Shown piece after piece: positions 1 through 21,489 of a stretch of 64,000 nucleotides of DNA. The stretch covers positions 108,782 through 172,781 of the forward strand of contig CBDCWP010000026.1 of assembly GCA_965223505.1 (NCBI GenBank), read 5' to 3'. The notes below the pieces were generated by a model. The model saw only the letters and a program-made list of their open reading frames with translations. It was not told where the DNA came from and ran no database searches. Each line of letters starts with the position of its first letter. Position 1 is the stretch's first letter. The DNA comes from Planctomycetota bacterium (GTDB taxonomy: Bacteria; Planctomycetota; PLA2; JAEUHO01). The position numbers were made by a program, and so were the translations under genes.

Positions 1-1
1 C

Positions 2-4395: not shown

Positions 4396-4403
4396 GGGAC
4401 ACA

Positions 4404-5607
4404 GTACACGGACGTCGGTGGGACTACGCAGGTCTCAGATTCAAACGGGAATCTGACGGACAACGGAACGTATCTGTTCGAATACGACTACAGGAACCAG
4501 ATCGTTCGCGTGAAACTGAAGTCAGATAGCTCGACTGTGGCGGAGTACCTCTACGACGCGCTGGGGCGGCGGGTCGAGAAGGAGGTAGGCGGCGACGTCT
4601 GGCGGTTCATCTACTCGGACCTAGAGACAGTCGCCGTCTACGATGGGAGCAATAGCTGGCTGCAAGACTTCGTGTTCGGTCAACGAATCGATGAGGTCTT
4701 GATGCTCGAGCAGGCGGACGTGCTCGACTTCGATGGGGATTCGAATACGACCGAGACGACGCGATCCTTCTACCATCTAAATGCCCTGGGGTCGGTGACT
4801 GAGATCACCGAGATGGACGAGGACGTTGCCGCCAGCTACCGCTACGACCCCTACGGCGCCGTGACGATTATTCGGAACAGCACCGAAGAGTCCGAGGACC
4901 CACTTGGGCAACCCTGGATGTTCACAGGCAGGTTTGCCGATGAAGAGACGGGGATGTACTACTACCGCTCAAGGGCGTACGATCCGGAAGTTGGGAGATT
5001 CACTCAGCGAGACGGACTCAGCTACGCATCGGGTCCCAATCTATACGAGTACGTCGGGAGCCATCCTCCTTCCGGAAGAGATCCTCTCGGGCTTGAGGAA
5101 GAAGACACCGACGAGAAGAGCGCCGAAGACAAGCCGGACCAAGGTCCGGACACAGAGAAACTCATGAAGCCCAGGTGGCGGCCACCCGGCCGCGCAGGCT
5201 GGACCGCCGCATTTACGAAGGCACACCTCGAGTGGTGGGAGGTTATTATCCGCGAGTACGAGCTGCACGGGCATCCGGCGGAGCGCCGCCGTCCCGCTCC
5301 CGCGAAGCCCGAGAAAACCGCGTTCGACAAGGACGGCACGTCCCCACCGCCCTGGATGGTGATCCCCCATGTACCTGCAGGTGGGGGGGGGACGACCGTC
5401 TGCCCTGGGTCTGGGCCGAAGTCTCTGCGTGATTGGCTGGGTGATAAGGATCTGCCTCCGTGGCTGGTCGCGCCCCATCTTCTTGACGAACCGCTCGACG
5501 GCGAGAGTAACGCTGACGGCTCGGACGACGCGGGAAGTGACGGCGCGGGCAAGGGTGAGACAGAAGGCGACAAGAAGACCGGCGAGAGCGGGAAGCCCGC
5601 CAAGTAG
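4404..5607 (+). pseudogene. Rhs/YD-repeat protein, 3' part only (Rhs core + divergent C-terminal extension), 5'-truncated by the transposon
   Basis: Frame open from the IS end (YTDVGG...DSNGNL...YDYRNQ), YDALGRR, FTGRFADEETGMYYYRSRAYDPEVGRF, NLYEYV...DPLGL. Confidence 0.85.
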
Positions 5608-5720
5608 CGCCCCCCCGGGGGAGCTTGGCGGCCGCCCAATCACTTGAACCTGAAGCAGCGATTCGCGGTTCCGGTACGATAGCGATGTGGTGCCGTACGC
5701 ACTCTCGGAGTTTCGCCCCG

Positions 5721-7229
5721 ATGGCCCTTCGTATGACTCTAGCGGTCACTCTTCTATTGGCAGCGCCTTCAATTTGGGCTGACGAGTCGCCAGAGATGGG
5801 ACGCATGACGGAGGCAACAAGTGTTGTCGAGCGCAACCTTAGGATGCTGGTCCAGGGCCAAGAAGTTGGCGGTACGCGCGTCCGTGTCGGAAGGACGAAA
5901 GATGGGAACCGGCTGGCCGAGACCGAATCGCTTATCCGCATGACACTCGGGGACGGCGATCGCGACGACAGAGTGATCGAGTCGCGAGCATACTCGCTTG
6001 AGTGCTTCGACAGCGACGGCAGGATGCGTTGGATACGCACCCGAGCGACCGAAGGCGAAGCCGCGACGACGATGAGTGTCCGGTTCAGCGTCACCCACGC
6101 ACGAATCAAGTGGGACTCGCCCGACGGCGATGGAGAGGAGCGCATCGAACTGCCCGCAGACTTTAGTTCGGACTACCAGGTCTTTCAGTCACTCGTGAGA
6201 GACTTCCGTCGGAACGAATCAAGTGCGGCGTCGTACTCGAGATGGGTGGGGGGAGACATCCCGTTCGAAGCAGCTCAAATGACCGTCATTGAGAAGACGT
6301 CAGTCACGCATCGGGGCAAGAAGCACGACGGCTTTCTCATTCAGATGGAAGGGGGCCGAATCGTCGTGGACGCGGATTTCGTTCCCATGCGCGCTACTAG
6401 GTTCGGGATATACGAAATTAAGTGGATCGACGCCCCCCCCTTCGATTTCTCGCCTAGTGGCTGGAACGTAAGCAGTTCCATCCCGGTCGAAGGGCTGGCT
6501 CCGACCTCAAAGCACCTCGAATCGCTAGAGATGATCGCGACCCTCGTTGAAGATGATCCGGCGCCAGTGTTCTCGAGCAATCGATATCAGGACGTGAAAA
6601 GGGATGGAAAGACCTACTCTCTCACCCTAGGTTCGACGCGGCCCAAGTTAGCCGCCCGCCTTGAGTTTCCTCTTGAAGTCACAGATGAAAGGGCCAAGCA
6701 CTATCTCTCGCCGACTCTCCTGAGCCAGTCCGACCACCCGCTGATCGTCGAACGGGCGAAGAAGATCGTAGACGGGTCGGGCGACGCGATTGAAGCCGCA
6801 ACGCGCATCGTGCAATGGGTCTACACAAACCTTGAGAAGTCGAGCGGTACGATCAGTTCTGCGTCCTCCATTCAAGCCCTCAGGGCGAGAATCGGCGACT
6901 GCACCGAGCACGCGGCGCTTGTTGTGGCGCTTTGTCGTGCCGTTGGAATCCCCGCTCGCAACGTTCGTGGGATCATGTACTTCGTGGCACGCGGCGCGCC
7001 CAGAGCTGGATATCACGCGTGGGCGGAGATATGGCTGGGAGTGTGGACTGGTGTTGATGCGACTATTCCTGAGGTAGGGACTGCGGCCCGCTACATCCTA
7101 CTCTACGTCGATGAGCCAGGGGAAAGCGTGAGTCTCGCTGAGCGCTCTCGAGCATTGCTCGGAAAAGTCCGCCTGCGCGTCACCGCATATAGGCCCCAAG
7201 GCGGAAAGCGAACGGTCGTAGAGCGCTGA
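5721..7229 (+). CDS. Secreted transglutaminase-like domain protein
   Basis: Signal peptide; GDCTEHA...GIPAR...YHAWAE...VDAT gives a Cys-His-Asp triad. Confidence 0.85.
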   Translation: MALRMTLAVTLLLAAPSIWADESPEMGRMTEATSVVERNLRMLVQGQEVGGTRVRVGRTKDGNRLAETESLIRMTLGDGDRDDRVIESRAYSLECFDSDGRMRWIRTRATEGEAATTMSVRFSVTHARIKWDSPDGDGEERIELPADFSSDYQVFQSLVRDFRRNESSAASYSRWVGGDIPFEAAQMTVIEKTSVTHRGKKHDGFLIQMEGGRIVVDADFVPMRATRFGIYEIKWIDAPPFDFSPSGWNVSSSIPVEGLAPTSKHLESLEMIATLVEDDPAPVFSSNRYQDVKRDGKTYSLTLGSTRPKLAARLEFPLEVTDERAKHYLSPTLLSQSDHPLIVERAKKIVDGSGDAIEAATRIVQWVYTNLEKSSGTISSASSIQALRARIGDCTEHAALVVALCRAVGIPARNVRGIMYFVARGAPRAGYHAWAEIWLGVWTGVDATIPEVGTAARYILLYVDEPGESVSLAERSRALLGKVRLRVTAYRPQGGKRTVVER

Positions 7230-7266
7230 GTTCACTCGCGTTCAGTCGCCAACTCGCTGAGCGATC

Positions 7267-8340
7267 CTACTTGTTGGAGAGAGCGCGCAAGATGCCGGAG
7301 TTCGAGTCGGCGACAGCGGCAATCGAGTCTCCGTCGCCCAAACCTAGCTGGCTGCGAGTCATGACTCTCACACTTCCGTTGGCGAAACCAACGATAGCCA
7401 CGTCGCGAAAGTGAAGGTCGGCTACTAGCGGCTCCGAGCCGCTGCCGTCTTCGGACGCTAGCCTGTAGGCAGCTTCCGCGTTGCGCCGGCCGGCGTACGA
7501 CGTCAGGTCGCTGAAGTCGTCGACGCGTGAGAACTCACCGCTCGCGATCGCGTCATAGCGACTTCGCCCCACTGACGCAAGTGAGCGGTGCCTGTCCGCC
7601 GGACTGAAGAGGATCTCTAGATGGGCCTCACCGCGAACATCCAGTCGGCCATCCGCCACGAGCGCGACAATGAACGCCTTCCCGGAATAGGGCGGATACC
7701 CTCCCGTGTTCGGCTTGTTGAGTGCAGTCAGGATCTTTCGGATGTTGTCGATAGAGCGAGCCTGGTCAGCTGCGACCCGCTGCCCCGCCAGCAAGCCCTT
7801 CATGTAGCGTCCAGGTGACTTCGCGGACTCCGCCCACTGACGCTTCAGAAACGTAGTCATCATGCCATGAGCACCCGTACCGGTATCCACGAGCATCGGC
7901 CGCCCCGTGTTCGACGAAGTAGCCCAATCGAGATGGACGCGCCGAGAGCCAACTGTGTACGTCACCCTCCGCGACCCAGTCGAGAGTTCGCTTGAGACCA
8001 GCTCAGTTTCAGCCGGATTGTCTGGTCTGGGGGCCCTATCGATCAGACTGACCACGAGAAATCGCGCAAGATCGCGCATTAGTGAGTCGCTCTCGGCGGC
8101 CAGACTCGCGACGGCACGAACGCCAAAGACCCGTCGCGCGATCTCAGGCACGTCAACATAGCGCGCCAGAACATCGAGGCTATCGGGCTCACCCAAATTC
8201 GCCGGAACCCGTAGGAGATTGCGGGTTGCCGCGGTGACTGCCTCCTCGCTCGGTGCACGTACTCCGTCGTTTTCCTTCGCGGACACGTGCACTACGCCCC
8301 AGAGACCAAGAACAACAGCTATGCAAAGCGCGCGACGCAT
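7267..8340 (-). CDS. Secreted protein: possible MlaC-like N-terminus + H-X9-DG/DUF1559-like C-terminal domain
   Basis: GGAGG RBS, signal peptide; C-terminal AIVGFANGSV motif; C-terminal half paralogous to 12520-13092. Confidence 0.6.
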   Translation of the reverse strand: MRRALCIAVVLGLWGVVHVSAKENDGVRAPSEEAVTAATRNLLRVPANLGEPDSLDVLARYVDVPEIARRVFGVRAVASLAAESDSLMRDLARFLVVSLIDRAPRPDNPAETELVSSELSTGSRRVTYTVGSRRVHLDWATSSNTGRPMLVDTGTGAHGMMTTFLKRQWAESAKSPGRYMKGLLAGQRVAADQARSIDNIRKILTALNKPNTGGYPPYSGKAFIVALVADGRLDVRGEAHLEILFSPADRHRSLASVGRSRYDAIASGEFSRVDDFSDLTSYAGRRNAEAAYRLASEDGSGSEPLVADLHFRDVAIVGFANGSVRVMTRSQLGLGDGDSIAAVADSNSGILRALSNK

Positions 8341-8562
8341 GTGAATCCTCCGTGCCACTTCCGCCAGAACACGGCGAAGGGCAGCCGCGCTCATCCCCGG
8401 TCTCGACGGCCCGCCACAGGATACCGTAGGTTGTCGCTCCCACGCCGACGGCGATCGTGCAGAGTCGTGCACGGACGTGCGCACAGTCATGCCGATTTGT
8501 GGCAAAGACACCCGAGGCTGAATCTGCAACTTACGCCGTTGCAAACAGTTACGACTTGGGCT

Positions 8563-8721: not shown

Positions 8722-8766
8722 CGAGGTCGTGGCAGAAGAACAGCAAAGAAGTGGTCATAGTCACTT
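8722..8766 (+). repeat. 45-bp invariant site, copy 1 (CGAGGTCGTGGCAGAAGAACAGCAAAGAAGTGGTCATAGTCACTT)
   Basis: Exact match at 13499, 15191 and 21445. Confidence 0.95.
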
Positions 8767-8793
8767 TGCGGCGCGGGTTCTTCGTGGACCCAC

Positions 8794-9728
8794 TCACACC
8801 TTCCAGAGGAGCTGACTTCCCTCTCGGCGCACGCGGCCTCGCTGTACCAGCACATCCAGCCCCAGGCTCATGCGGGCCTTCAGTTGCTTGCCCATTCGGT
8901 TGAACCCTAGGACACGGCCGGCCTCGCGAGACAAGTCGTCCGCGTCCATGCTGACTTGGTCGCGCAGCACCGCTGCAGCGGCGTTGGCAACCTCTTCGGG
9001 GGGGATTTCGTTCGCGTTGCGGCGGTCCCGATCTTCACGGCCCTGGACTCTCACGACGTCGTACGTGCGGGGGTCCTGGTGCGAGGCCCATAGGAACGTC
9101 GACGGTCCGGCCTTCGTCTCGATCAATGCGAGAGGTCGCAGTGCCTGCGCCATGCGACCAAGGACACGGTCTGTTGCTTTCTGGAGCCCGAATGCCTCCA
9201 CAACCCGGCGGCAGAGCAAGCGGTACTCGATCGGTGCCTCTTGGTCGAGCACGCGCTGGGCGAGTTCCTGTATTGCTGCGGTTCGGGAGCTTGAATAGAA
9301 GGCATCCGGTCCGCCACGGGCCTTGAGCACCGGGGTTGCTCGGTACGTCCGGCCCGCCGGCGCGAACACCTGTTTCGCTGGCGCGGGTGAAGGTGAAGCT
9401 ACGGCCGCCATGTGTGCACTGGACGCGAAGAGGCCGGAGCTAGTCGCCATGACGTCATCAGCTCCGCCGCCTTCGGCATTGGTTGAGGTGGGACGTCCGA
9501 GTTCCTCAAAACGTTGAACGACACGCTCAATCTCGCGATCCGGATCCAGCCACCAGTCCGTCGACCAGATGCGGTGCAATGACCAACCGAGACTTTCCAA
9601 CACGGCTTGTCGTAGGCGGTCTCGGTCACGAGCCGTCTTGCCGCTGTGGTACATGGCTCCGTCGCACTCAATCCCCAATCGGAACCGGCCCGGCACGTCG
9701 GGGTCCTTGATGCCAAGATCGACACGGT
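8794..9728 (-). pseudogene. C-terminal fragment (REase/Vsr-like + DUF3320-like wHTH) of a DUF4011-type SF1 helicase
   Basis: RVDLGIKDPDVPGRFRLGIECDGAMYHS...RDRDRLRQAVLESLGW.LHRIWSTDWW; reading frame cut at the junction with the partial transposon at 9729. Confidence 0.8.
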
Positions 9729-10517
9729 GAGGCGCCTGCTACGGGTGGCGCTGCGTCGATGGCGCTGGTATCGGAGGCGGCTAAAGTGGGTTCGTGCCGG
9801 GGCGGTGTGGGCGGCGGACTTCACCAGGCCCAAGGCTGGCCTGTGGCAGGGCAAGGATCGACTGTTCCTGGTTCGCGATCTCGGAAGCGGAGCGCAGCTG
9901 GCGGCCGTAGCCTGCCGGGGCGAGAAGACGAAGACTGTGTGCTCGGTGCTGCTCGCTTTGATCACGCTGTTCGGAGCGCCGCTCGTTCTGAAGAAGGACA
10001 ACGCCGGCGCGTTTCGCTCGGAGCAAACGAAGGCGTTGCTCGAGGAGCACGGCATCACGCCACTCACGTCGCCGCCGTACACGCCCGCCTACAACGGCGC
10101 GTGCGAACGAAGCGGCGGCAACTTCAAGCGACGTGTGGAGCACATCGCGCAGATGGAAGAACATCCCCGCATCTGGCTCCCTCAAAACCTCGACGACGCC
10201 TTGCTCGTTGCGAATACGACGGCGAGGCCATGGGGTGCGACCGGGCCCACGCCGGCGGAGGCCCTCGAAGACCGCCGGCCCATCACGAGGCAAGAGAGAA
10301 CAGCATTCGAGCACGATCTGAAGTTCGAGACCGATGCCGCGCTCAAGACATTCAAGGAAAGAAACGCTAGAATGCCGATGTGCATCGAGCGCGCGTCAAT
10401 CGACCGCAGCGCGACGCAGAGAACGCTCTGCAAGCACGGCTATCTACAGTTCCGGAGAGGGCGCTTATCAACACTAGTTTCCGCTTGGCGGACGCGGCCT
10501 AACGCGTAGGGGACACA
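9729..10517 (+). mobile_element. Partial copy 3 of the four-ORF transposon (3' part of transposase B + right end)
   Basis: Matches 3615-4403 (offset 6114); ends GGGGACACA; left part deleted. Confidence 0.9.
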
Positions 10518-11020
10518 GAAGCACCATGCCGAGAAAGAATGGACCTGGACTATGGTCTGTGATCCACAGGACAGCCTTTACTACGTGACGTCGCACTACA
10601 CAACGTCAGCGCAAAGCTACATGTTCACAGAGGTTGACGATATCCTGGACTGTGATTACGCCAACGCGATTAACTACATTCGGATCAAGAACAGAGGTTG
10701 ACGATATCCTGGACTGTGATTACGCCAACGCGATTAACTACATTCGGATCAAGAACGACAATCTGGGCGAAGCATACCGCACCTACAAGGACGAGATTGA
10801 ATCTGAGAACACCAATTCCAGTTCAGAAAATGTCAGAAGCAAGCAAAGCGGCACCGGAACAACGGCCGCAGTCGGGGATGGGTCGTTGTTCAGCGCGAGC
10901 ACGAAGATAGAGTGTCACACGTACGCAAAGAGCGAAGCACACGCACACGGCAACTTGGTCGAGTACACCTGTGGCCCGAATTTCCTTCCGATTCCAGCAC
11001 CTCCGGATGACGACGACTAG
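10518..11020 (+). pseudogene. 3' fragment of an unknown gene, truncated by the IS and frameshifted by a 64-bp duplication
   Basis: Removing one repeat unit gives a continuous frame KHHAEKEWTW...MFTEVDDILDCDYANAINYIRIKNDNLGEAY...PPDDDD*. Confidence 0.6.
10627..10754 (+). repeat. Perfect 64-bp tandem duplication
   Basis: ACAGAGGTTGACG...CGGATCAAGA at 10627-10690 and 10691-10754. Confidence 0.95.
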
Positions 11021-11026
11021 GCTCCT

Positions 11027-12514
11027 TTGCGATTCCGTACCGTCGTTTTCCTTCTGGTCTTGGCAGTGGCGGGCGCCTTCTCATGGGTCGCGATACGAGA
11101 CCGGCCGCACGCCAACAGTACTCAGCAGACTGGCGCATGGCCCATTCCCGCTACTGAATCACCATCGCTTTCGGGCGCGGCAGCTCAGACGCGGCCAGAC
11201 GATGAGGCCCCATCGCGTCATGATCCGCTATCGCGGCGCATGCGAGCGCTAAGTGATGCGATCTTGAACGCGGGTCCGATGGAAGTCAGGGCGACCCTGA
11301 TGTCTCTCGCAGAGCTTGTATGCCGTGACCCGAGACTTGCAGGTCGGCTTGCGTCCGAGGCCCTGAGTGCTAGCGAGCGCGGGAACCAACGCCTCGCGGC
11401 CGACATTCTCTATGCGATGGGGCGATGCAAGAACAGCGAGGTCTTGGAACACTTGATCCGAGTGCTCCGGGACGAAGACGCGCCCGCGCCGCTACGCGGA
11501 GCCGCAGCGATCGGCCTGGCGCAGCGTCGAGTTATCGACCTGCGCTACAGGGCCGGGCGAGTGGGAATTGCATTCGGCGATACGCATCTTGACGGGCCAA
11601 TCGAAGAGGCGTTTGTACGAGAGGCCATACTCGAAACACTTGTCACCATGTTTCGTGATCGGAACATCTCCAAGGAACACAGCGGCCATACCCTTTACCA
11701 GTTAATTCATGCGCTTGGAGGCAGCGCCACAGTGGACCATGGCGTGTTTTCGACACTGGAAGAGATCGGAGATGCGGCTCCTAGCTACACACCCTGGGTT
11801 CTGTCTGCGTTCCAACTCTCCCTTGGCAGCAGCCAGGCGGCGTATGCCAGGGCGATATTGTTTCGCCCCGATGCAGACGACGCCACCCTTCAAGCTGCGA
11901 TGTCGCTATTGATCCGTTCGGACCTAAAGGGGGCGGCTGCTATCGCGGCGTCTCTCCTCGCCGCACGTTCCGGCTCCGATGCCGTCGCGCTCCTAACCGC
12001 AATGGGCACCATAGGCGTTGTCGAGGAGGGCGAAATGCATGCAGTTGAAGCGCTGTGTCAAGCGGCGGTTGAGTGGGCGCGGCAGCATCCGACAGTTCGG
12101 CTAGAGGACCAAACCGAGGTGAGTACTGGAAGCGCATTGCAAGGGGTGCTCAGCGTGGCTCTCGCTCGAGGCGCATCCGAGTCGAGAGTCATAGTAGGGT
12201 ACTGCGCGAACGCCTTACTCGAACGCCTCGAGTCAGACAATTTGTCATCCGATCGGGAGCTGGCAATCGCTGTCCAAACATGCGTGTCGCTCGGTCGGTC
12301 ACAGTTCATTGACGAGTTCGTCTCGCGGCTAAGGGGAAGCACCCTGAACTCTGAACGTTTGGCGCATACGATACTCTCCATTCGCCAAGGGACATCGCGC
12401 AAGAGATGGGAGAAGTTTGAGGCGAGAATACTCAGCCTCCTGGACCGTCTTCCACCAGAACTGATGAAGCGCACCGAGAAGGCCCTAGGAGAGTTCCCAG
12501 ACCCACGGAAGTAG
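11027..12514 (+). CDS. Membrane-anchored HEAT/alpha-solenoid hypothetical protein
   Basis: N-terminal TM segment, Ala/Leu-rich helical repeats (LRGAAAIGLA). Confidence 0.6.
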   Translation: MRFRTVVFLLVLAVAGAFSWVAIRDRPHANSTQQTGAWPIPATESPSLSGAAAQTRPDDEAPSRHDPLSRRMRALSDAILNAGPMEVRATLMSLAELVCRDPRLAGRLASEALSASERGNQRLAADILYAMGRCKNSEVLEHLIRVLRDEDAPAPLRGAAAIGLAQRRVIDLRYRAGRVGIAFGDTHLDGPIEEAFVREAILETLVTMFRDRNISKEHSGHTLYQLIHALGGSATVDHGVFSTLEEIGDAAPSYTPWVLSAFQLSLGSSQAAYARAILFRPDADDATLQAAMSLLIRSDLKGAAAIAASLLAARSGSDAVALLTAMGTIGVVEEGEMHAVEALCQAAVEWARQHPTVRLEDQTEVSTGSALQGVLSVALARGASESRVIVGYCANALLERLESDNLSSDRELAIAVQTCVSLGRSQFIDEFVSRLRGSTLNSERLAHTILSIRQGTSRKRWEKFEARILSLLDRLPPELMKRTEKALGEFPDPRK

Positions 12515-12519
12515 CGCCT

Positions 12520-13092
12520 CTACTCGGAGAGGAGTCTCAGCAATGGTGACAATGAGTCAGGCCCGGCGCGAATCGGGTCGTCCCCAGAAATTCCAAGCTC
12601 CTCGCGGCTGAGAACTCTCACGGAGCCGTCAAAGAACGCAATGACCGCGAAGTCCTCGAAGCACAGCTCAGCGATCAGCGGGGGAGGAAGACTAGACTGC
12701 CTTGGTTCGTTTGCGCGATCGGTGCTGCGCCCGACCGGACCTACGAAGCTCGTCAGATTCGGGAACCGCTCGCTTCTGAGCGCCTCTCCGGTGACCATCG
12801 CGTAGGCGCCTGCCGCCGGTCGCCGGCGACTGTCGTTCGGCGAGAAGAGGAGTTCAAGGTGATCCGGGTTTCTGAGCGGGTCGAGAGTGCCGTCCGCAAC
12901 CAGCGAAAGGACGTAGCTCTTCCCGACTTCGATCCGGTTGGCGCTCGATCGCATCAGCAGGGCTGAAAGCGTCTTCAGCCTGTCAACGGAGACACTCAGA
13001 TCGCGGTCCAAACTCGAGTGTGCAGGCGTGAGCAGCCACGCGCCGAGCGCTGCGGCGGCCACAAACAGCAGAAGAGCTACGTATCTTGACAC
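12520..13092 (-). CDS. Membrane-anchored H-X9-DG/DUF1559-like domain protein
   Basis: AAAAGAGGT RBS; TM segment; GKSYVLSLVADG.LD...LELLFSPND...AVIAFFDGSVRVL paralogous to 7267-8340. Confidence 0.65.
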   Translation of the reverse strand: MSRYVALLLFVAAAALGAWLLTPAHSSLDRDLSVSVDRLKTLSALLMRSSANRIEVGKSYVLSLVADGTLDPLRNPDHLELLFSPNDSRRRPAAGAYAMVTGEALRSERFPNLTSFVGPVGRSTDRANEPRQSSLPPPLIAELCFEDFAVIAFFDGSVRVLSREELGISGDDPIRAGPDSLSPLLRLLSE

Positions 13093-13338
13093 ACCTCTTT
13101 CATTTTACTCCAGTGGAGCAACTTCGCCACTGTATCGAGCGTGTCGACCCCATCGCGCGCGGGCAAGGTGGCCCGGTCGGTCGAGACGGACCTCGCGCGC
13201 CAACGATCGTCGGAGCCATCGCCGCTCGCTCAACGCGAGGTCGTGCAACGACGCGCGCACAGTCATGCAGATTTGTGGCAAAGACGCTCGCGGCCGGTCT
13301 TGCAACTGACGCCGTTGCAAGCAGTTACGACTTGGCCT

Positions 13339-13390
13339 CGCCGGCCTGTCAAGCCGGAGGTCGCGGGTTCGAGTCCCGTCACTCCCGCCA
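13339..13390 (+). pseudogene. tRNA-Asp(GUC) 3' fragment (att core), copy B
   Basis: Identical to copy A over 54 bp (8561-8614 = 13337-13390); 5' half absent. Confidence 0.9.
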
Positions 13391-13498
13391 GTCTTCTTGC
13401 ACGACGTCGCCCCAACTTGCGCGACGTTGCACGCTTGCGGCGATCTCCCTAGCGGAGCGCCCGATCCCTTACTTCTCGCAGCAATGTGCAAGGACGTG

Positions 13499-13543
13499 CG
13501 AGGTCGTGGCAGAAGAACAGCAAAGAAGTGGTCATAGTCACTT
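13499..13543 (+). repeat. 45-bp invariant site, copy 2
   Basis: Exact match to copy 1. Confidence 0.95.
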
Positions 13544-13651
13544 GGCGCTTCTCAGTCAGCCGGCCGAGTGTGGCGTTCCGACCGATCGGCAGGGACGGAG
13601 TGGTGACCCGGGTCCCAACTTCCGGTTACCGAGCGGGGTGAAGCTACTCGC

Positions 13652-15176
13652 GTGAGGCGTTGTCTTCCCCATCTGCTCTTGCTCGGCGCCATCACACTGG
13701 TAACAGCCTTCACGGCCTCGACGGTCGGAGAAACGTCTGCAGCACCTGAGGCCGACGCTGGCGGGCCGTGCGGCCTACCCGACAGCGGTGCCGTCTGCGA
13801 ACGGCCGCTTCTCGGCGCGAAGCCATCAGACGGAATCGATGAAAGTCCTTGGACGCAATCGCCGCCAGTCGAGCTTCCGACGAAGGCCCGCGGGCTCGGC
13901 GCGAGACCGTTTGGCGGCATGGATTTCGATCCTTGGACGCAATCATCGCCCACCGATCCTCGGACGCAGTTGCCACCGGCCGTTCCGCGGAAGCGATCGC
14001 CGCCCGCCGTTGTTCCGTCGCGAGCCGGACGGCGCGACAAGAGCAAAGAGAAGTGGCGAGTTCAACGCGCACTACCGGGTACGAACGGCGAACTGATCGT
14101 CGCTGAGGAGTATCTCGAAGAAGCGAGCGCGACCAAAGCGGCCCTCGTCGCCTATGACCTGTCCTCGCTTGCACCTAGTTTCCGTGGGCATAGCGCCTCC
14201 GCGCCGCTCAAAGGCCACGAGCCACTTGCTGCATGGCCCCCCCGCGACCATGACTGGTGGACCCGGCTCGCTACGGCCATCGTGGACAGGGTCGGCGAAT
14301 CCGGCTGGGCGAAAGACAGTACGCTCCTCGCCTGGGACAAGGAACGGGCGCTGCTCTTCGCGGCTAGGGGACATCGACCTCGAGGTGTCGTGGTGCACGC
14401 ACGCACCTCGCTTCGGGACGTTCTCGACGAGTCTCGTTGGATCCCACGTCAACGTCACGATCGAGATCCCAGACACAGACCCGTTGAGCTGGCGAGGCCG
14501 CCTGCCCGCAGTGCCGGGCACCAGCTCGGTGATCCCCCTGGGCGAGGGCCTCTCGTGTGAAATCGAAGTAGGCGAGCCGAAGCGCGCCGACCGACCCCTG
14601 AAGCGCACCTGGCGCCGCGCCTCACCGTCGTTAGGTCCCCCACCCCCAGCGGGCGAGGGCTCGGTACTCGTGTTCGATCTCTCAGGCTCCGAGAGCGGGA
14701 AACTCGGCGAGGGGCAAGTCACCCTGCGTGGCCCACATCAGGTCGTCCAAAGTGATGTCCGACGCTGTTCTCCTGCGTGGCTTGCGGCGGCGTACGACCG
14801 AGACCCTCTCCGACCGCCAGGAGTCGGCACCGGACCCGTTGCCTGTGGGCAGATTCGCGTGCAGGCATCGTCGTTCGACGCCACCCGCGAGCCCTCTCGT
14901 ATCGATCTTGTGCTCGTGGTCAGCGAGTGGACCGGGGACACACGGCTAGTTCAACTGCGACCTGGCGGCACGCCGGAGTTTGACCGCAGCCGCTTAGTGG
15001 AACTTCCGTCGGATCATGCCGTGGTCACGAGCCGCCACGTTTTCATTTCGCCGGAAGGCGAAGGCTCCGTCTCCTTTGCCGGCGACATCGGCCGCGGTCC
15101 CGAGCTCTTCACCCTTGCCTTACAGCGACGTCAGGTGCCGCAAGATACGGATGCAGGCTCGCGTCGCGGGCAGTGA
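13652..15176 (+). pseudogene. Putative secreted protein split across two frames (13652-14560 and 14154-15176)
   Basis: Signal peptide and duplicated LGA(K/R)P..G.D..PWTQS.P motif in frame 1; protein-like sequence appears to switch frame near 14370. Confidence 0.4.
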
Positions 15177-15190
15177 CCAGTCAGGAAGCA

Positions 15191-15235
15191 CGAGGTCGTG
15201 GCAGAAGAACAGCAAAGAAGTGGTCATAGTCACTT
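15191..15235 (+). repeat. 45-bp invariant site, copy 3 (no tRNA fragment)
   Basis: Exact match; 14 bp after the stop at 15176. Confidence 0.95.
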
Positions 15236-15325
15236 GGCGGCGCGGGTCTCGGGTGCGCTCACGAGCGTCAAGCGCTACTCTCGTCGGTAGCTCCCCCTCG
15301 ATGGGCGTGTCCTCAGGGCCTGGCC

Positions 15326-15769
15326 ATGACCGAGCTCATGATCATCCAAGACAGCCTCTGTCGTCCCACGGCGTTCTTCTGGAACGGTGCGATCGACGCA
15401 GCTCGCCTGCGAGCGTGGCTTCACCGCAACGGTCTAGAAGCCAAGTGCCCGAACGACCTTGTCCGACTGTGGCAAGTCACAGGCGGCGGAAACTTCTTCG
15501 AGTCGGAGACCATCCTTGGGCCGTACGGAGATGCCCAAATGGGGGACGACTTCTTGGGAGCGAACGAGCACCTGAGGGCTCGGGGGCTGCCGCCCCGGTT
15601 CCTGGCGTTCTCTACGGGAATGTCCATCGGTGCCGTGGATGTTTCCACAGGTGAGTTCGTGGAGCTGGGCAATGAAGGACTTGACGTGCGCTGTCGCTAC
15701 GTGTCGCTGGACCATTGGTACTCAAGTACGGTCAGAGACGAACTCGGCGCGAGGTATGGCTTGGCCTGA
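15326..15769 (+). CDS. SMI1/KNR4 (SUKH) family protein
   Basis: CPNDLVRLWQVTGGG.F and YVSLDHWY match the LP.DY..FL....GG ... SF.EWL pattern of SUKH domains. Confidence 0.7.
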   Translation: MTELMIIQDSLCRPTAFFWNGAIDAARLRAWLHRNGLEAKCPNDLVRLWQVTGGGNFFESETILGPYGDAQMGDDFLGANEHLRARGLPPRFLAFSTGMSIGAVDVSTGEFVELGNEGLDVRCRYVSLDHWYSSTVRDELGARYGLA

Positions 15770-16042
15770 GCGTCCCCAGCGCCGCGACGACGGCGCGGGC
15801 CAGCGTCGCCGTCGTCAGGGCAACTGCGAAACTCCATCCGTTCACCGGCGTATGACTCCAATCGGCACAATGATGGATCATACTGGACCGAATCGCCGCC
15901 GCCCCTGCGGAAGTGCAGCGGGGGCCAATAGGGCGGAGTATGGCCCGGAGAGCACTCGGGTATGAGACGTCGCTTCCGTCTAAGCTAGCCGGCCGTCCGG
16001 GAAGAGCACTTCGATGCGGATCGAACGGAAGTACGTCGGCGA

Positions 16043-16905
16043 GTGAGCACAGCTAGAGCACATCTTCAGCAGGCTACAGTCGTGTTCGCACTCGTGGCCG
16101 CTTGCGGCCTGCGAACACCCACGACAGTTCATGGGGAACCAACTCCGGCGGACTCCACACTTGATGTTCACATAGTCGGCGCGACAGATGCCGGCGACAA
16201 GTGGATGCGAGTTGTGGTTCGCGAGTTGATTCCGTCCTCAACGAGACGACATCACTCGATTGGACAACTGCTTTGGGTTGCTAGAGTCAAGTCTAAGGGT
16301 GGTAGAGCGCGGACTTCTCTTCCTCATAGCGCAGTTCGCGAGTTTCTGGCGGTCTCTGCGTCAACTTCGCAGTCCTGCGAGTACTGGAACGCCGCGGGCC
16401 CGCTGCAAGTGGACAAACCGAATGTGGTAAGGATCCCTGTAGAACTGACGCTGGCACGAACCGCCACTGGTAAAGTCCGTCACTCCAATGAGTGCCGCTG
16501 CGAGAAGTCAGTCGTCTGGTTTCGCAGAGCCAAAGCTCCCTGGGCACCACGCGGTTCAGCGGCCTCCGCGATGCGCCTTTTCCCACTTGATTTGGGCGGT
16601 GAGCCCAAAGCAGTAGTCTCCAGGCTGTGGGTATCCCGGTCTGTGCAGGTGCAGCCGTCTGGCCGATATGTACTTAGAGGGATCGAAGCCGGCGCTGACT
16701 ACGATCTTGACGTGGTCTCCTCTACCTGTGGAGAGTCTCAGACCGTTACCTGGAAGGCCGAAGATGGAGAAAGGGCGCCCGAGCTTGTGGTTCAAGAGCC
16801 GGGCGACCTTGTCGTACGCATCGATTGGCGCGTCGAGCAATCGAAGTCCCGCTATTCGCTCGATTTGGGACCCGCTCCCTTCAGACGCCGACGGTTCAGC
16901 GCGAC
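16043..16905 (+). pseudogene. Secreted protein with carboxypeptidase-regulatory-like beta domain, 3'-truncated by transposon copy 2
   Basis: Signal-like N-terminus; SGRYVLRGIEAGADYDLDV motif; frame runs into the IS end at 16906. Confidence 0.5.
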
Positions 16906-16913
16906 TGTGTCCC

Positions 16914-18020
16914 CTACGCGTTAGGCCGCCTCCGCCAAGCGGAAACTAGTGTTGATAAACGCCCTCTCCGGAACTGTAGATAGCCGTGCTTGCAGAGCGT
17001 TCTCTGCGTCGCGCTGCGGTCGATTGACGCGCGCTCGATGCACGTCGGCATTCTAGCGTTTCTTTCCTTGAATGTCTTGAGCGCGGCATCGGTCTCGATC
17101 TTCAGATCGTGCGCGAATGCCGTTCTCTCTTGCCTCGTGATGGGCCGGCGGTCTTCGAGGGCCTCCGCCGGCGTGGGCCCGGTCGCACCCCATGGCCTCG
17201 CCGTCGTATTCGCAACGAGCAAGGCGTCGTCGAGGTTTTGAGGTAGCCAGATGCGGGGATGTCCTTCCATCTGCGCGATGTGCTGTACACGTCGCTTGAA
17301 GTTCCCGCCGCTGCGCTCGCACGCGCCGTTGTAGGCGGGCGTGTACGGCGGCGACGTGAGTGGCGTGATGCCGTGCTCCTCGAGCAACGCGGCCGTCTGT
17401 TCCGAGCGAAATGCGCCGGCGTTGTCCTTCTTCAGAATGAGCGGCGCTCCGAACAGCGTGATCAATGCGAGCAGCGCCGCGCACACAGTCTTCGTCTTCT
17501 CGCCCCGGCAGGCTACGGCCGCCAGCTGCGCTCCGCTTCCGAGATCGCGAACCAGGAACAGTCGATCCTTGCCCTGCCACAGGCCAGCCTTGGGCCTGGT
17601 GAAGTCCGCCGCCCACACCGCCCCGGCACGAACCCACTTTAGCCGCCTCCGATACCAGCGCCATCGACGCAGCGCCACCCGTAGCAGGCGCCTCTTCATC
17701 TCTGAGAGCACTCGATACGGCACGTCGCTGAACATTCCCCGAAGTACGGTCACACCCGAGAACGGCCCGAGCTCGAACATCGCACGCAGCACCTTCTGCC
17801 GCTTCGCTCGTGGTACGTCATCGGCCTTGCGGCCACGCTTCTCGTACACCGGCTTGCCCTGGCGAACGCGAAGCTCCCACCGCCTGATCGTTCGCTCGGC
17901 CACGCCAAGGACTCGCGCCAGGTAGGCGCGTGTTTCCTTGTCCCAGCCACTTCGCCGCATCACCTCCACGGCCTGAAGCCGGAACTTCACCTGCTCCTCG
18001 TACGACATCCTCTCGCTCAT
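16914..18020 (-). CDS. DDE transposase B (copy 2)
   Basis: Near-identical to 3289-4395 with several substitutions. Confidence 0.85.
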   Translation of the reverse strand: MSERMSYEEQVKFRLQAVEVMRRSGWDKETRAYLARVLGVAERTIRRWELRVRQGKPVYEKRGRKADDVPRAKRQKVLRAMFELGPFSGVTVLRGMFSDVPYRVLSEMKRRLLRVALRRWRWYRRRLKWVRAGAVWAADFTRPKAGLWQGKDRLFLVRDLGSGAQLAAVACRGEKTKTVCAALLALITLFGAPLILKKDNAGAFRSEQTAALLEEHGITPLTSPPYTPAYNGACERSGGNFKRRVQHIAQMEGHPRIWLPQNLDDALLVANTTARPWGATGPTPAEALEDRRPITRQERTAFAHDLKIETDAALKTFKERNARMPTCIERASIDRSATQRTLCKHGYLQFRRGRLSTLVSAWRRRPNA

Positions 18021-18412
18021 CCCTGCCTCCATCCTCCCTGGTGCGCCACATGCAGCGCGTGCCGAACCCGCGGCGCCTCGCCAAGCCCGCAATCGAAGAT
18101 GTCCACCTGCGTTCGCACCACGCGCACTCGGTGCCGTAGCTTCGACACCTCGCGCTCAAGCTCATGATCGTCGTCAGGCAGCACGGCGCGCGGCCGGCCA
18201 CAAGCGCCGCCTTCAAGCGCCTCAACGCCGGCCTGCAAGAACCTACGTCGAAGATCCTGGAAGCGCGTTCGGCCGATGCCCAAACGCTCGCACGCATCGC
18301 CAACGCTCCACTGCCGGCCAAGCGTGAGCAGAATCACCTTCACGCGCTCACGCGCCGTCTCGCTCGCCGACGTGCGCGCCACCAGCGTCGGCATCTCGCT
18401 TCGCCGTCCCAT
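18017..18412 (-). CDS. HTH accessory ORF3 (copy 2)
   Basis: Near-identical to 2897-3292. Confidence 0.75.
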   Translation of the reverse strand: MGRRSEMPTLVARTSASETARERVKVILLTLGRQWSVGDACERLGIGRTRFQDLRRRFLQAGVEALEGGACGRPRAVLPDDDHELEREVSKLRHRVRVVRTQVDIFDCGLGEAPRVRHALHVAHQGGWRQG

Positions 18413-18854
18413 CGCCGTTTCCTTTCTCTTCAAGGCCCGTGCGCAGCGTCTTCAGCACCGTCTTGCCGCGGTGGCCGCGCTTGGCGCTGCGGCCCTTCTT
18501 CGAGGATGCCTGCTTGCGCCCGCCGCGCGCCAGCCCCAGGCTTCGATTGGCCGCACGAAGCAGGGACTGGTGCCGCCGAAGCTCCTTCTCCAGGTGCTGT
18601 TTCTCGGCCTTCAGCGCCAATATCTCGCGCTGCGGCGTCTTCTGGATGCCGCGCTTCTTCGGCTCCATCGCCCGCAGCATGCCCTTCAAAGCACGGCCTT
18701 CGAGCTGGTAGTAGCGCGAGAGCGACACGCCCATCTGCTCAGCCGCCTCGCTCGTGCCGATCTCGCCTGAGAGCGCTTCCAATATCACTGCCACGTGCTT
18801 GCGCGACGTCTTGCTCGCCGTGATCGTCGTCACGTTCTTCTTCTTCGTAGGCAT
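18348..18854 (-). CDS. HTH/coiled-coil accessory ORF2 (copy 2)
   Basis: Identical protein to 2455-2961. Confidence 0.75.
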   Translation of the reverse strand: MPTKKKNVTTITASKTSRKHVAVILEALSGEIGTSEAAEQMGVSLSRYYQLEGRALKGMLRAMEPKKRGIQKTPQREILALKAEKQHLEKELRRHQSLLRAANRSLGLARGGRKQASSKKGRSAKRGHRGKTVLKTLRTGLEEKGNGDGTAKRDADAGGAHVGERDGA

Positions 18855-20215
18855 TACTCCTGCTCCTTCGTGGGCGCCTCGTCAAGGGCCTTGAGCTCCT
18901 CGAGCACGTCGTCGAGCACGCTCTCGCCCGGCCCCTCCTTGGCCGCATCCTTGCGCTTGCCCGATGCCCGCAAGTCGACCTCTTCGCGAACGCCGTCCTT
19001 GTCCGTCAACAGCACCTTGTCGCCCTCGGCGTGAAGCGACACCGGCTCGTCGCCGATTCGACCCGCCAGGTACAAGGGCTTGCGCGGCTCACCGTGAAGC
19101 GCCAACTCCTTGGCGTTCGTTGCAACCGCCTCCTGCAGGGCGCTGCGCACGCTCTGCGAGGCTTCGAAGAATCGGTCCGCTGGAACCAGGCCGCCAATGC
19201 CCTGGTGGGTGCGCTGGAAGTTGTAGAAGCCGATGAAGTGGGCAATGCGCGTCTTGGCGTCCTCCATGCCGCGGAAGATCGCTCCGTCGATCAGCTCGCG
19301 AAACAGCGTGCCCCAGAAACGCTCGATCTTGCCAAGCGTCTGCGGCCGCCTCGGCCTGGCCACGATCTGCTTGATGCCGCGCTTCTCGCAAAGCTTGCGA
19401 AACGAGCTCTTCCCGCGCCAGGTCTGATACTGCGCGCCGTTGTCGGTCAAAATCTCCTCGGGCGCGCCGAAGTTCGCGATCGCCTGCTCGAACGTCTCCC
19501 GAACCATCGCACCCGACGCCGATGCGTGAAGCCCGAAGCCCACGATGAAACGCGAGAAGTCGTCCAGGTAGCAAACCAGGTGCACGCGCCGACGCTCGCG
19601 CTTCAGGAGAAACGTGAATAGATCCGTTTGCCAAAGCTCGTTCGGTCGCTTGCGCTCGAATCGCTTCACCTTGGGCGGGTTGCGCGCCGGCGCAACCGCC
19701 TCCACCTCGTAGCCCGCTTCCTTCAGCACGCGCTGAACCGCGCCGCCTGAAACCGAGATACCCTCCGTTCGGATCAGCATGTCGTGGATCCGATCCTGGC
19801 CCCAGTCCGGATGCGCGTCCTTCATCATCAGGATCGCACGGCGCGCCGGCTCGGGCAGCCCGCTGCCCTTCATGCCGCGCTTGTGCCCGAGCAAACCGGC
19901 GGGGCCCTCCTCCTCGAACTTGCGACGCCACGCGTACAGCGACGCCGTGCTCACGCCGATCAGCGGCGCGAACTCCGTGGCCGCAAGCTCGCTGCGAAAC
20001 CAACAGTCAAGCGCCAACAGGCGCTGCTCGCCCGTGAACTCCGCGCTACGCGATGCGTCGCTTCGCACCGTTCGCGCACGACGGCTGCGTGTGCCGCGGG
20101 GCACGTAGCCGCTCACGGCCCGCTTCCTCCGCTCGGCTCCGGCGACTTCGTCGCCTCCGCCTCCCTTCGGAAGCGGGCCGTCCAACCTCTCGGGCGCCTT
20201 CGTATCGTCGTTCAT
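18854..20215 (-). CDS. DDE transposase A (copy 2)
   Basis: Identical protein to 1094-2455. Confidence 0.9.
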   Translation of the reverse strand: MNDDTKAPERLDGPLPKGGGGDEVAGAERRKRAVSGYVPRGTRSRRARTVRSDASRSAEFTGEQRLLALDCWFRSELAATEFAPLIGVSTASLYAWRRKFEEEGPAGLLGHKRGMKGSGLPEPARRAILMMKDAHPDWGQDRIHDMLIRTEGISVSGGAVQRVLKEAGYEVEAVAPARNPPKVKRFERKRPNELWQTDLFTFLLKRERRRVHLVCYLDDFSRFIVGFGLHASASGAMVRETFEQAIANFGAPEEILTDNGAQYQTWRGKSSFRKLCEKRGIKQIVARPRRPQTLGKIERFWGTLFRELIDGAIFRGMEDAKTRIAHFIGFYNFQRTHQGIGGLVPADRFFEASQSVRSALQEAVATNAKELALHGEPRKPLYLAGRIGDEPVSLHAEGDKVLLTDKDGVREEVDLRASGKRKDAAKEGPGESVLDDVLEELKALDEAPTKEQE

Positions 20216-20295
20216 CTCTCTTCCTTTCCCTGGCACATAGGCCAGCCAAAGGAGAGAGCCTTATCAACACCGGTTTCCTGCCCTTCGCAGGTCAC

Positions 20296-21120
20296 CTATT
20301 CGTCGAGGGAGACAAGCCATGCACGCCAGAGTCGCACATCAGTTCCGAAGTCCTGGCCCGTTGCCGCCTTGAGTGCCTTGGAACATAGGTCGCGCCTGCG
20401 CGTCGTTGTCTGTCGCGCGAGAGCATCAACGAGAGCGCTTGCCGCCTTTGGATATGGATGCGTCCGGAACCAGTCGAGTACGAACTCTTCATCATCCGCT
20501 TCCAGGCCGGCATCGAGTGCACGCACGAGTCGAGGTGCTGCGGCCGCCGCATCCACTGCAGCGAGGGCTTGGAGAGCGGCGAAGCGTACCTCCGAATCCC
20601 CGGCGCCCGTGAGGTTCGCTAGGCGAGCGGAGAGTTGTCGCGCAGACGCTCCCAGCAACTCGACGGCACCAAGCACAGTCCGGCGAACGTAGGAGGGCTG
20701 GGATTCGTCTTCAGCGACTTCGAGCACCTCTGAGGAGTGGGCCCGAGCGGCGTCACGTATCCCGTCTCGGGCGGCTGAAACCACGTCACCGGGTTGAGTC
20801 TCGTCGAGAGCCGCGAGCAATACGGAACGACTCTGCTCGAACGAGAGCGTGCCCAAATGGCGGAGCGCCTTCAGCTTCGCTTGGTCGTGCCCTGACGCGC
20901 GGGCGCGATCGAGAAGTGCCTTCGTGGCCTGGCGGTCACCGGTGGCCGCCCTTAGAGCCAGCATGGCGGCGCTGGCTTCCGCGGCATTGAGCTCCGGTTC
21001 TGATTGGACGATGGCGGAGGCGAATTGCTGCACGTCGCTCCTGCGCCGAGATGAGCCTCTATGTGAGGCGCCTGCCAGCCTCTCTTGCGCGCGTGTTGCT
21101 CGGTCGGCTTGAGGATCCAA
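20296..21120 (-). pseudogene. HEAT-repeat protein fragment; stop codon supplied by the transposon end
   Basis: DSEVRFAALQALAAVD HEAT repeats, C-terminal ALKAATGQDFGTDVRLWRAW; last codons lie inside the IS; 5' end unclear. Confidence 0.6.
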
Positions 21121-21440
21121 AGGAGGACATAGAGGTTGCGCTCCCCTGCGCGCGGACCCTGAATCGGCACGAACGCTGGCTCACTCAGCGGCTGTTCGAT
21201 GCCGTCATGGCGCTGCACGGCCGGCATCCGAAACGCGGTGAGGTCCTCCTTCACCTCAACGCGTTCGTCCGCACCCACACCGACGTCGTCCTGAAGATTT
21301 GGGCCGACGCAGTCGAAGCGACGATCGTGAACTGGTTGAACTTCGCCGGATCGCTCCGGGACCTTCCTGCAAGCGCCCTCGATCCGTATCCAGAGGCACG
21401 CAAGGCGGTGGCGTTCATCAGGAAACTGCCGCGCCGATGA
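21051..21440 (+). CDS. Hypothetical protein or gene fragment ending just before the 45-bp site
   Basis: Protein-like helical composition; stop 4 bp before site copy 4; no family recognised. Confidence 0.35.
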   Translation: MSLYVRRLPASLARVLLGRLEDPKEDIEVALPCARTLNRHERWLTQRLFDAVMALHGRHPKRGEVLLHLNAFVRTHTDVVLKIWADAVEATIVNWLNFAGSLRDLPASALDPYPEARKAVAFIRKLPRR

Positions 21441-21444
21441 AGTG

Positions 21445-21489
21445 CGAGGTCGTGGCAGAAGAACAGCAAAGAAGTGGTCATAGTCACTT
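21445..21489 (+). repeat. 45-bp invariant site, copy 4 (no tRNA fragment)
   Basis: Exact match; last copy before core-like genes. Confidence 0.95.

Follow-up and report, generated by a model that had tools for sequence, protein, structure and literature searches.

Phage lambda and mycobacteriophage L5 integrate through attachment (att) sites, attP, attL and attR, that carry arm-type sites for the integrase. Integrons use attI and attC and gather small, mostly single-gene cassettes lacking a recombinase into a one-directional array beside the integrase, with attC folding as a single strand. For integrative and conjugative or integrative and mobilizable elements (ICEs and IMEs), accretion by serial integration at one tRNA-type site has been described, including integrase-less decayed members flanked by att sites, the cis-mobilizable elements or CIMEs (PMC5704250). 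The Prochlorococcus tycheposons are described as elements with a tyrosine recombinase, a primase/helicase and cargo, which target tRNA genes and are stacked with partial tRNA copies (10.1101/2020.12.28.424599). Here we analyzed 64,000 nt of DNA from a Planctomycetota bacterium (the window: C26:108782-172781, contig CBDCWP010000026.1), whose source genome is a metagenome-assembled genome (MAG) of 5.15 Mb in 44 contigs, 92% complete. The window holds four copies of a 45-bp sequence, the 45-mer, which is most likely, judging from its sequence context, the integrase-binding arm of mobile elements stacked behind tRNA-Asp; the integrase-less modules framed by the larger unit to which it belongs may represent an undescribed way of cassette capture.

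The 45-mer occurs with 0 mismatches at window positions 8722, 13499, 15191 and 21445 (copies c1, c2, c3 and c4), always on the plus strand and against an expectation of 0; none of 100 dinucleotide-preserving shuffles matched it, which bears out the original prediction of four mismatch-free copies on one strand. When the four copies were aligned with 200 nt on either side, only the 45-mer and a few flanking bases proved common to all, and c1 and c2 additionally share ~200 nt upstream, including a 52-nt 3' fragment of tRNA-Asp (8563-8614 and 13339-13390). The 45-mer starts 107 nt (c1) and 108 nt (c2) past the CCA end, as had been claimed, and c3 and c4 follow the stop codons of the open reading frames (ORFs) 14154-15176 and 21051-21440 by 14 and 4 nt, distances that agree with the ORF list as well as with the earlier claim. 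ARAGORN detected no complete tRNA in the window; the sole complete tRNA-Asp gene of the genome (C26:96339-96417) lies 12 kb upstream of it, and a copy termed c0 sits 108 nt past this gene. Genome-wide, six copies were found at up to three mismatches, namely the four in the window, c0 (C26:96526, 1 mismatch) and c5 (C44:291626, 2 mismatches), and BLAST revealed a seventh, diverged copy, c6, at C44:292406-292450 with a tRNA-Asp fragment ahead of it. All seven lie in two island loci and none is inverted within a locus, on which grounds a repetitive extragenic palindromic (REP) sequence or a miniature inverted-repeat transposable element (MITE) was rejected; neither such scattering nor a coding remnant, the outcomes named beforehand as speaking against a dedicated site, was encountered. 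Within the class set of 40 genomes including the source, the 45-mer was matched at up to three mismatches in the source genome only, with no match in the other 39, and a degenerate pattern of it yielded 0 matches in GTDB contigs and 0 in JGI metagenomes. Two looser hits were judged to be chance: a single metagenomic contig retrieved with a broader pattern (11.5 bits with the model introduced below, no tRNA) and a pattern match in genome G033 that had no tRNA context.

The 45-mer proved to be the invariant core of a ~65-bp unit, hereafter S, which opens with the tandem 10-mers GAGGACGTG/CGAGGTCGTG; the same 10-mers recur beyond the tRNA fragment, on its other side. A sequence-only covariance model of S, with which 137 first-look candidates were scored per genome, gave strong matches in 6 of the 40 genomes (seven in the source genome G000, six in G019, a MAG of another genus, and a single match in each of G017, G012, G011 and G003), with G002 adding a weaker match. 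This amounts to 18 S-bearing sites, 17 strong and 1 weaker, in 7 genomes of one planctomycete family; six further partial matches in five genomes (two in G001 and one each in G019, G021, G026 and G006) stand outside this count. Internally, 17 sites align free of gaps save for a 2-nt deletion in one, and the conserved parts comprise GCGAGGACGTG-CGAGGTCGTG, ~20 nt that occur in few sequence types, GGTCATRGTCAC and a GC-rich box. The types recur between genomes, the c6 type resembling sites g1, g2 and x of G019 and those of G011 and G012, and the type on contig C24 of G019 resembling that of G017; because S types are shared across genomes, the type of a unit is not the product of free drift. Twelve of the 18 sites lie 107-108 nt past a complete tRNA-Asp or its 3' fragment, one retains the spacer plus 13 tRNA nucleotides, and the remaining five are solo, so that the clustering downstream of tRNA-Asp proposed earlier as a check is seen at 13 sites. 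The spacer from the tRNA end to the 45-mer (r107, 107 nt at window positions 8615-8721, plus strand) is constant in length across the family and consists of conserved blocks with no indels over 12 loci of 57-90% identity.

The same arrangement extends beyond the source genus. In G019, an integrase 71% identical to that of the source genome is encoded 5 kb from tRNA-Asp, with an S variant 108 nt past the tRNA and a second variant 0.8 kb further in. This MAG was the only match when genome contigs were scanned with the integrase, and the source labels of the integrase homologues read Planctomycetes or Planctomycetota. A DNA search with the tRNA and its trailer matched 39 of the 40 genomes, mostly in the tRNA alone, and trailer homology was detected in G019, G003, G017, G002, G012, G011 and G015. 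A second tRNA-Asp of G019 (G019:C24:24630-24707) houses an element whose integrase is distant (38% identity), and no S follows the tRNA there; the same contig bears S-type junctions 20 kb further on, and the hot spot is thus used by two element families.

Across the tRNA core from S, the ~100 nt that precede the tRNA fragment in junctions c1, c2, c6 and G019:C39 include tandem 10-mers and, behind them, CGCACAGTCATG, and this P-arm cluster is a shortened mirror of S. In the window it reads CAGAGTCGTG, CACGGACGTG and then CGCACAGTCATG at junction 1 (8460-8491, plus strand; kept in junctions c2, C44 and G019:C39) and CGAGGTCGTG, CAACGACGCG, CGCACAGTCATG at junction 2 (13236-13267, plus strand). 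Every junction has tandem GGWCGTG 10-mers in its P' arm, and four of the seven junctions with a P arm have them there too, the other three arms being unrelated. The inverted repeat AAGTG-N8-CACTT, regarded in the original prediction as the recombination core, did not hold up, since it is not kept in the other S variants of the family; what is conserved instead, the tandem direct 10-mers and a GGTCATRG box, is arm-site-like.

The island itself is not integrase-less: a complete 435-aa tyrosine integrase (C26:102220-103527, minus strand) and a truncated one, int2 (27934-28851, minus strand; 85-88% identity to residues 195-422 of the complete protein), lie just outside the intervals, the former being the full-length enzyme that had been proposed as a target of search. 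Pfam assigned to it Phage_integrase (1.2e-20) and Phage_int_SAM_1 (3.3e-08), and its structural model (mean predicted local distance difference test score, pLDDT, 88) has a fold matching lambda Int, Brujita Int and XerA with Z of 15-17. Ahead of the core-binding domain stands an N-terminal domain (residues 2-59) with strands at 2-35 and a helix at 41-59, modeled with a pLDDT of about 95, to which Pfam DUF6538 aligned with 23 bits, under its 27-bit cut-off. Full-length lambda Int chains align over model positions 1..399 with 311-316 residues (Z 16.6-16.9, root-mean-square deviation 9-10), and lambda Int 75-356 aligns with 251 residues only, in a comparison made on the whole model. The tRNA core itself is duplicated at the element ends as the complete tRNA-Asp and the 52-nt 3' fragments, which start at tRNA position 28; the fragment at the C44 junction starts at this position as well, and that junction has ~100 nt of upstream arm in common with c1 and c2.

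Two-sided motifs at a fixed distance from a tRNA core, together with a predicted three-domain integrase, match a lambda-type attP architecture, and we infer that the integrase binds the arm motifs of S. As in lambda-type att sites, the tyrosine integrase has an extra N-terminal domain, the core lies in a tRNA gene, clusters of short direct repeats stand ~100-150 bp away on both sides of the core, int reads towards attL and an HTH_17 (excisionase-type) gene is present. Unlike in those sites, the arm cluster here also occurs solo, kilobases from any core, where it frames cargo modules, and the 45-mer is identical between elements whose adjoining arm DNA is 68-79% identical; the functional roles proposed here are all read from sequence.

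In the explanation that we favor, S would be a protein-binding unit in the P' arm of the att site of a family of tRNA-integrating elements, whose gene content comprises a tyrosine integrase of the lambda-Int kind, a primase-helicase and variable cargo, often of the defense type. As a first step, elements would integrate at the anticodon-stem/loop region of tRNA-Asp, placing S 107-108 nt past the tRNA end, and three serial integrations (accretion) would have left junctions c1 and c2 and, between 8.8 and 13.2 kb, a decayed integrase-less element. As a second, putative arm-type sites for the N-terminal domain of the integrase would be provided by the tandem 10-mers GAGGACGTG/CGAGGTCGTG together with the GGTCATRG box, both of which have their mirror in the P arm.

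The order of features in the window fits these two steps. Element A spans c0, outside the window, to the junction at 8460, its right part occupying 1..8459, and its integrase, HTH_17 and PrimPol/AAA_25 genes sit between c0 and c1, with int2 downstream of c4. At the first junction, the tRNA-Asp fragment at 8563-8614 (plus strand, anticodon stem to CCA) forms the core of attR of element A and attL of element B and is followed by the spacer and S copy 1 (8712-8778, plus strand; 45-mer 8722-8766). Element B (8779-13235) is decayed and integrase-less, and it ends in a remnant (12520-13092, minus strand) related to the right-end gene of element A; the second junction follows, with the tRNA-Asp fragment at 13339-13390 (plus strand) as its core and S copy 2 (13489-13553, plus strand; 45-mer 13499-13543) 108 nt past the CCA. 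With two tRNA-fragment junctions, no integrase and a right-end gene remnant, the interval 8779-13235, and that interval only, has the hallmarks of a CIME. Comparison between copies further revealed a mosaic. Between c1 and c6, identity is 88% for the P arm and 69% for the spacer, a discordance that locates a crossover to the tRNA fragment, where integration at the tRNA would put it. Copies c0 and c6 are 88% identical in the spacer and 72% in S, while c0, c1 and c2 have spacers 68-79% identical and an identical 45-mer, and this block-wise discordance across spacer and S points to a second breakpoint at the border between the two. Together, these observations make the assignment of c1 and c2 as attR/attL junctions of serially integrated elements, and of c0 as attL, well supported, and we consider it likely that S is an arm site within an accretion array.

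The original prediction, in which the site is part of a system for site-specific recombination at a tRNA-Asp hot spot and integrase-less DNA is stacked between the copies, is upheld by this arrangement. Its statement that the intervals contain no recombinase stands for site-specific recombinases and fails for rve transposase ORFs, which are present in a complete insertion sequence (IS; 16904-20315) and a partial one (9729-10518). As in CIMEs, the 8.8-13.2 kb interval is integrase-less between att sites and has related integrases in cis; core att repeats delimit CIMEs, however, and core-less arm-site units delimit modules 1 and 2 described below. The likeness to tycheposons extends to module make-up, tRNA targets, partial tRNA copies between stacked elements and island remnants; they differ in belonging to another phylum, and a cargo-subdividing arm-site repeat is not among the features described in that part of their account. 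Core-less arm-site units subdividing the cargo between att and int were not found described in the available parts of the ICE/IME and tycheposon sources, no dedicated literature search having been made.

Six units are solo: c3 and c4 in the window, c5 on C44, g2 and x in G019, and a unit at a tRNA-Leu on C40. In the window, S copy 3 (15181-15247, plus strand; 45-mer 15191-15235) has neither a tRNA fragment nor r107, and S copy 4 (21435-21501, plus strand; 45-mer 21445-21489) opens with a degenerate 10-mer, CGATGAAGTG, that contains the stop codon of ORF 21051-21440. All six solo units are oriented like their junction copy, and each of the five with a known integrase is found on the stretch from that copy to int; on C44, c6, c5 and an integrase remnant follow one another in the same relative order as at the window locus. 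The modules so delimited measure about 0.8, 0.8, 0.9, 1.7, 1.8, 2.7 and 2.8 kb (the last without its IS) and form one-directional arrays between att and int in which gene orientation varies. A tblastn search with seven backbone proteins (E<=1) detected no backbone remnants in the solo-bounded modules. In four of the six solos, near-identity of the unit begins at, or at most 2 nt from, CGAGGTCGTG.

Module 1 (13554-15180, plus strand) consists of one gene for a ~560-aa secreted protein of unknown family, split by a frameshift into ORFs 13652-14560 and 14154-15176. The second ORF corresponds to the C-terminal ~230 residues of proteins of 553-586 aa, to within 0-8 residues of their ends, and the first to the N-terminal part of one of these proteins, so that a gene with intact ends stops 14 nt before the 45-mer. 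Module 2 (15248-21434) contains ORFs 15326-15769, 15630-15965 and 16043-16924 (plus strand), a 3.4-kb IS (16904-20315), a HEAT-repeat ORF (20296-21120, minus strand) and, directly before c4, the orphan 129-aa ORF 21051-21440 (plus strand), for which no relatives were detected. The ORFs that follow c0 (505 aa) and g2 (506 aa) are not homologous to each other. The tRNA-Leu element on C40, found by self-comparison around other integrase genes, encodes an integrase 33% identical over its full length, including the N-terminal domain, and both GAGGAGGTG and CGAGGTCGTG are present in its P' arm; a 51-nt unit whose first bases are exactly CGAGGTCGTG, ~82 nt past the tRNA, is repeated with 98% identity 2.6 kb inward, towards the integrase. 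The module between these two units carries a 263-aa ORF and a DACNG/DACNH/DAC (diadenylate-cyclase domain) protein, both as whole ORFs, and the resident cargo beside the integrase is an HTH_3-Peptidase_M78/DUF4411 pair. By their predicted gene content, several modules look like self-contained defense or accessory units.

The region C40:142941-147351 presents two adjoining candidate defense modules (HTH_3-Peptidase_M78 with DUF4411, and the 263-aa ORF with DACNG-DACNH-DAC). Near a tRNA-Pro element, a 73-nt direct repeat (G000:C39:246479-246551 and 248026-248098) was rejected as an S-like unit: it is the 3' end of an integrase ORF, and its second copy is hence what remains of an integrase gene lost by deletion. 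A 13.8-kb element is bounded by a 43-nt tRNA-Pro repeat (C39:237639-237681 and 251386-251428).

For the solo copies, a third and least certain step is proposed, in which recombination at the CGAGGTCGTG box on the left edge of S would insert small integrase-less modules and so give rise to c3, c4 and the other solos. Each module would bring its own unit and so rebuild the P' arm beside the tRNA, much as islands regenerate the tRNA, and S would thereby be both an arm site and a cassette docking site between att and int. The insertion would be of the Campbell type, an S-bearing circle entering such that the incoming unit ends beside the tRNA, with the S-binding integrase as the obvious candidate enzyme; such a process would account for the direct repeats, the sharp limits, the missing backbone, the differing types of neighboring units and the breakpoint between spacer and S. 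Cassette capture at the 45-mer, as originally predicted, thus does not apply to the intervals at c1 and c2, which are classical att junctions formed by integration at the tRNA core, and it survives as a conditional reading for c3 and c4 only, where intact-gene boundaries, the lack of backbone remnants and the recurrence in two genomes and at two tRNA targets lend it support. Insertion of the modules by recombination at S strikes us as plausible and just short of probable, and we offer the three-step explanation as a whole with the same reserve. A further extension, an integrase-catalyzed, reversible and integron-like second layer of mobility, in which the lambda-type integrase of the elements or a partner protein would recombine S with S-bearing circles, seems rather unlikely to us; under it, single defense or accessory genes would be captured, stacked and lost between att and int, and the arm needed for excision of the host element would be rebuilt.

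Like integrons, the arrays consist of small recombinase-less modules running in one direction, their sites abut ORF ends and, as in chromosomal integrons, these sites are uniform within a genome. Unlike the integrases of integrons, the enzyme found here scores 21.8 bits on NCBIfam integrase_gron, whose cut-off is 265; unlike attC, S has no conserved imperfect palindrome, AAGTG-N8-CACTT is absent from other S types, and the consensus fold displays no covariation; and the array sits within the att-int interval of a mobile element. The likeness to integrons is therefore one of outcome only, and the earlier description of the site as integron-like in outcome and not attC-like agrees with the negative IntI score and fold tests.

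Several observations weigh against recombination at S or against a specific role of its motifs. We know of no lambda-type integrase for which strand exchange at arm-type sites has been reported, and no conserved inverted-repeat core was found across the S variants. The 9-mer GAGGTCGTG is frequent in the GC-rich source genome (300 matches), so that its presence alone proves nothing and weight attaches only to its tandem arrangement and position. Similarity at the solos extends leftwards to differing limits, which lie at about -2, -10, -11, -13/15 and up to -21 and -33, and this spread fits deletion end points as well as it fits a single fixed crossover. One copy, G019:C24 b, retains r107 and 13 nt of the tRNA, and the solo-bearing arrays are known from two genomes only, both of them MAGs. 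An all-against-all BLAST of 2.5 kb on each side of 20 sites revealed no empty-versus-filled pair, the sole shared downstream block (G002 and G019:C24) being an IS transposase gene. Finally, no circle, module deletion variant or empty site was seen; the sequencing data comprised four public runs from one study, all in the form of contigs built from 31-letter words and examined over window positions 12900-22000.

Accretion followed by decay, the foremost alternative, would make every S a former P' arm and the solos the leftovers of deletions, with no recombination at S at all; the deletion ends would cluster at S through fork stalling at bound protein, or only arrays with an intact S would be recognized. 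At hot spots of this sort, tandem arrays as a rule include decayed members (PMC5704250; 10.1101/2020.12.28.424599), element B is just such a remnant, and ISs able to drive deletions are abundant. The variation of the left limits from -2 to about -33, the copy that keeps r107 and 13 nt of the tRNA, and neighboring units of unlike sequence type (c6/c5 and a/x), as expected of independent elements, all accord with this course. What it explains poorly is the regularity of the solos, in which both deletion ends would be non-random in six of six cases, the right end falling within ~33 nt of S out of ~260 nt of arm, tRNA fragment and spacer, and the left end just after intact cargo genes (14 and 4 nt past the stops), with module 1 preserved whole-length. 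Moreover, the modules contain no integrase or backbone remnant, and past the integrase stop nothing resembling S or a 10-mer is present by which deletions could be guided. Because the ends lie within ~33 nt of S in all six cases and start just after intact genes with no backbone left, random deletion acting without a site-directed process is an unlikely origin of the solos, and we judge decay as the full explanation to be unlikely as well.

It could also be argued that S is a cis element of another kind, such as replication-origin iterons, a regulator operator or a transcriptional insulator, in which case the additional copies would serve this function close to each cargo module. The direct repeats of S are iteron-like, the elements encode PrimPol/AAA_25 or DUF3987 replication proteins, and the minus strand of S copy 4 scores as a weak terminator-like hairpin with a T-rich tail. 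This hairpin, however, is not conserved in other S types, and only one of the four window copies passes the terminator scan; S is common to elements with different replication genes, the orientation of neighboring genes relative to S is not constant, and the fixed distance of 107-108 nt with a mirrored P-arm cluster fits attP. Scans for promoters and terminators returned no more sites than chance would give, with 2 promoter-like sites where 1.6 were expected and 11 terminator-like ones where 10.9 were. A cis element of this kind is improbable in our view.

An assembly artefact, in which the repeats are real and the order or number of modules stems from mis-joins at the 45-65 nt repeat, has the fragmented data on its side: the genome is a 44-contig MAG, and module order rests on the deposited assembly. 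The public contigs break in every S copy and neither confirm nor contradict that order, and in the shallowest run (X4, depth 2.16) one contig joins 13498 to 15191, that is copy 2 to copy 3, skipping module 1. This join may be a graph collapse, because the shared 49 nt exceed the 31-letter words and the neighboring parts are uncovered, and we give it no weight as evidence; uncovered parts in X3 and X4 are uninformative at depths of 2-5. On the other hand, depth is even (about 7) across the modules and all flanks in the deepest run, the repeat is shorter than ordinary reads, and the same array design recurs in an independent MAG on two contigs, which leaves mis-assembly very improbable. Least credible of all is a product encoded by S, be it a small peptide (from a minus-strand ORF, MTTSLLFFCHDLA..., that begins at an invariant CAT) or a structured RNA of the tRNA trailer, or else a sigma-54 promoter (TGGCA-N7-GCA) within it. 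The ATG and its frame are kept in all but one S variant, and rpoN is present in the genome. The peptides, however, stop at unrelated places after 28-76 codons, and in the P arm, where these motifs are found again, the frame enters a gene that probably starts further on, at a signal peptide; the small ORF was rejected. RNAalifold on spacer plus S detected no covariation (term -0.42), Rfam gave no match, and the sigma-54-like letters fall in the part of S that differs between types, on which ground that promoter was rejected as well.

After tRNA-Asp and c0, outside the window, come a SEC-C-motif ORF, a 282-aa ORF and a SecB-like ORF (PADLOC PD-T4-9_C), and next, on the minus strand, the complete integrase, two small ORFs, PrimPol/AAA_25 and HTH_17 of element A. 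The right part of this element contains a 444-aa ORF, a 3.4-kb IS (994-4405), a fragment with an RHS-associated core domain (4510-5607, plus strand) that looks like broken cargo, a transglutaminase-like ORF (5625-7229) and the right-end gene (7267-8658, minus strand). Element B starts with a 300-aa C-terminal fragment (8794-9696, minus strand) of a ~1900-aa anti-phage helicase of the ProA/Hhe type, cut by the IS fragment at 9729-10518 and likewise resembling broken cargo, and continues with ORFs 10634-11020 and 11027-12514; a perfect 66-nt tandem duplication (10627-10692/10691-10756) lies directly upstream of, or within, the former. The DNA from S copy 4 to int2 (21502-27933) bears a gene for a CHASE-PAS-SpoIIE phosphatase (21744-24344, minus strand), an IS of the IS256 family (24828-26225) and CBS, 149-aa, RRM and 78-aa ORFs. 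The truncated integrase, 6.4 kb past c4, has its N-terminal part replaced by an IS-type HTH ORF (28587-29249), and beyond it a 1021-aa TPR-CHAT protein (30532-33597, minus strand) beside a 332-aa ORF could be a further defense-type island gene.

The 3.4-kb IS, with rve transposase ORFs of 460 and 392 aa and two small ORFs, is present at 994-4405, inverted at 16904-20315 and partially at 9729-10518; its copies are 99% identical, and more occur on C44, C39 and C10. The IS256/Mutator-family IS at 24828-26225 likewise has many copies, of 88-100% identity, on C4, C30, C39, C44 and other contigs. A ~75-nt repeat at C26:94808-94881, of which dozens of copies with 77-85% identity are spread over many contigs, is REP-like and unrelated to the 45-mer.

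Tandem islands at tRNA genes are ordinary; poorly understood is how these elements gain and shuffle cargo in the stretch between att and int, often a defense hot spot. In the family described here, exact copies of an arm-site-like unit divide the cargo into discrete modules, in two genera and at two tRNA targets, and this in a phylum with almost no studied mobile elements. Should strand exchange not take place at S, the locus would provide a clear example of accretion and decay and would define the att architecture of a new element family. If strand exchange at S does occur, the modules would constitute a cassette system distinct from integrons and reveal a new activity for arm-binding tyrosine integrases.

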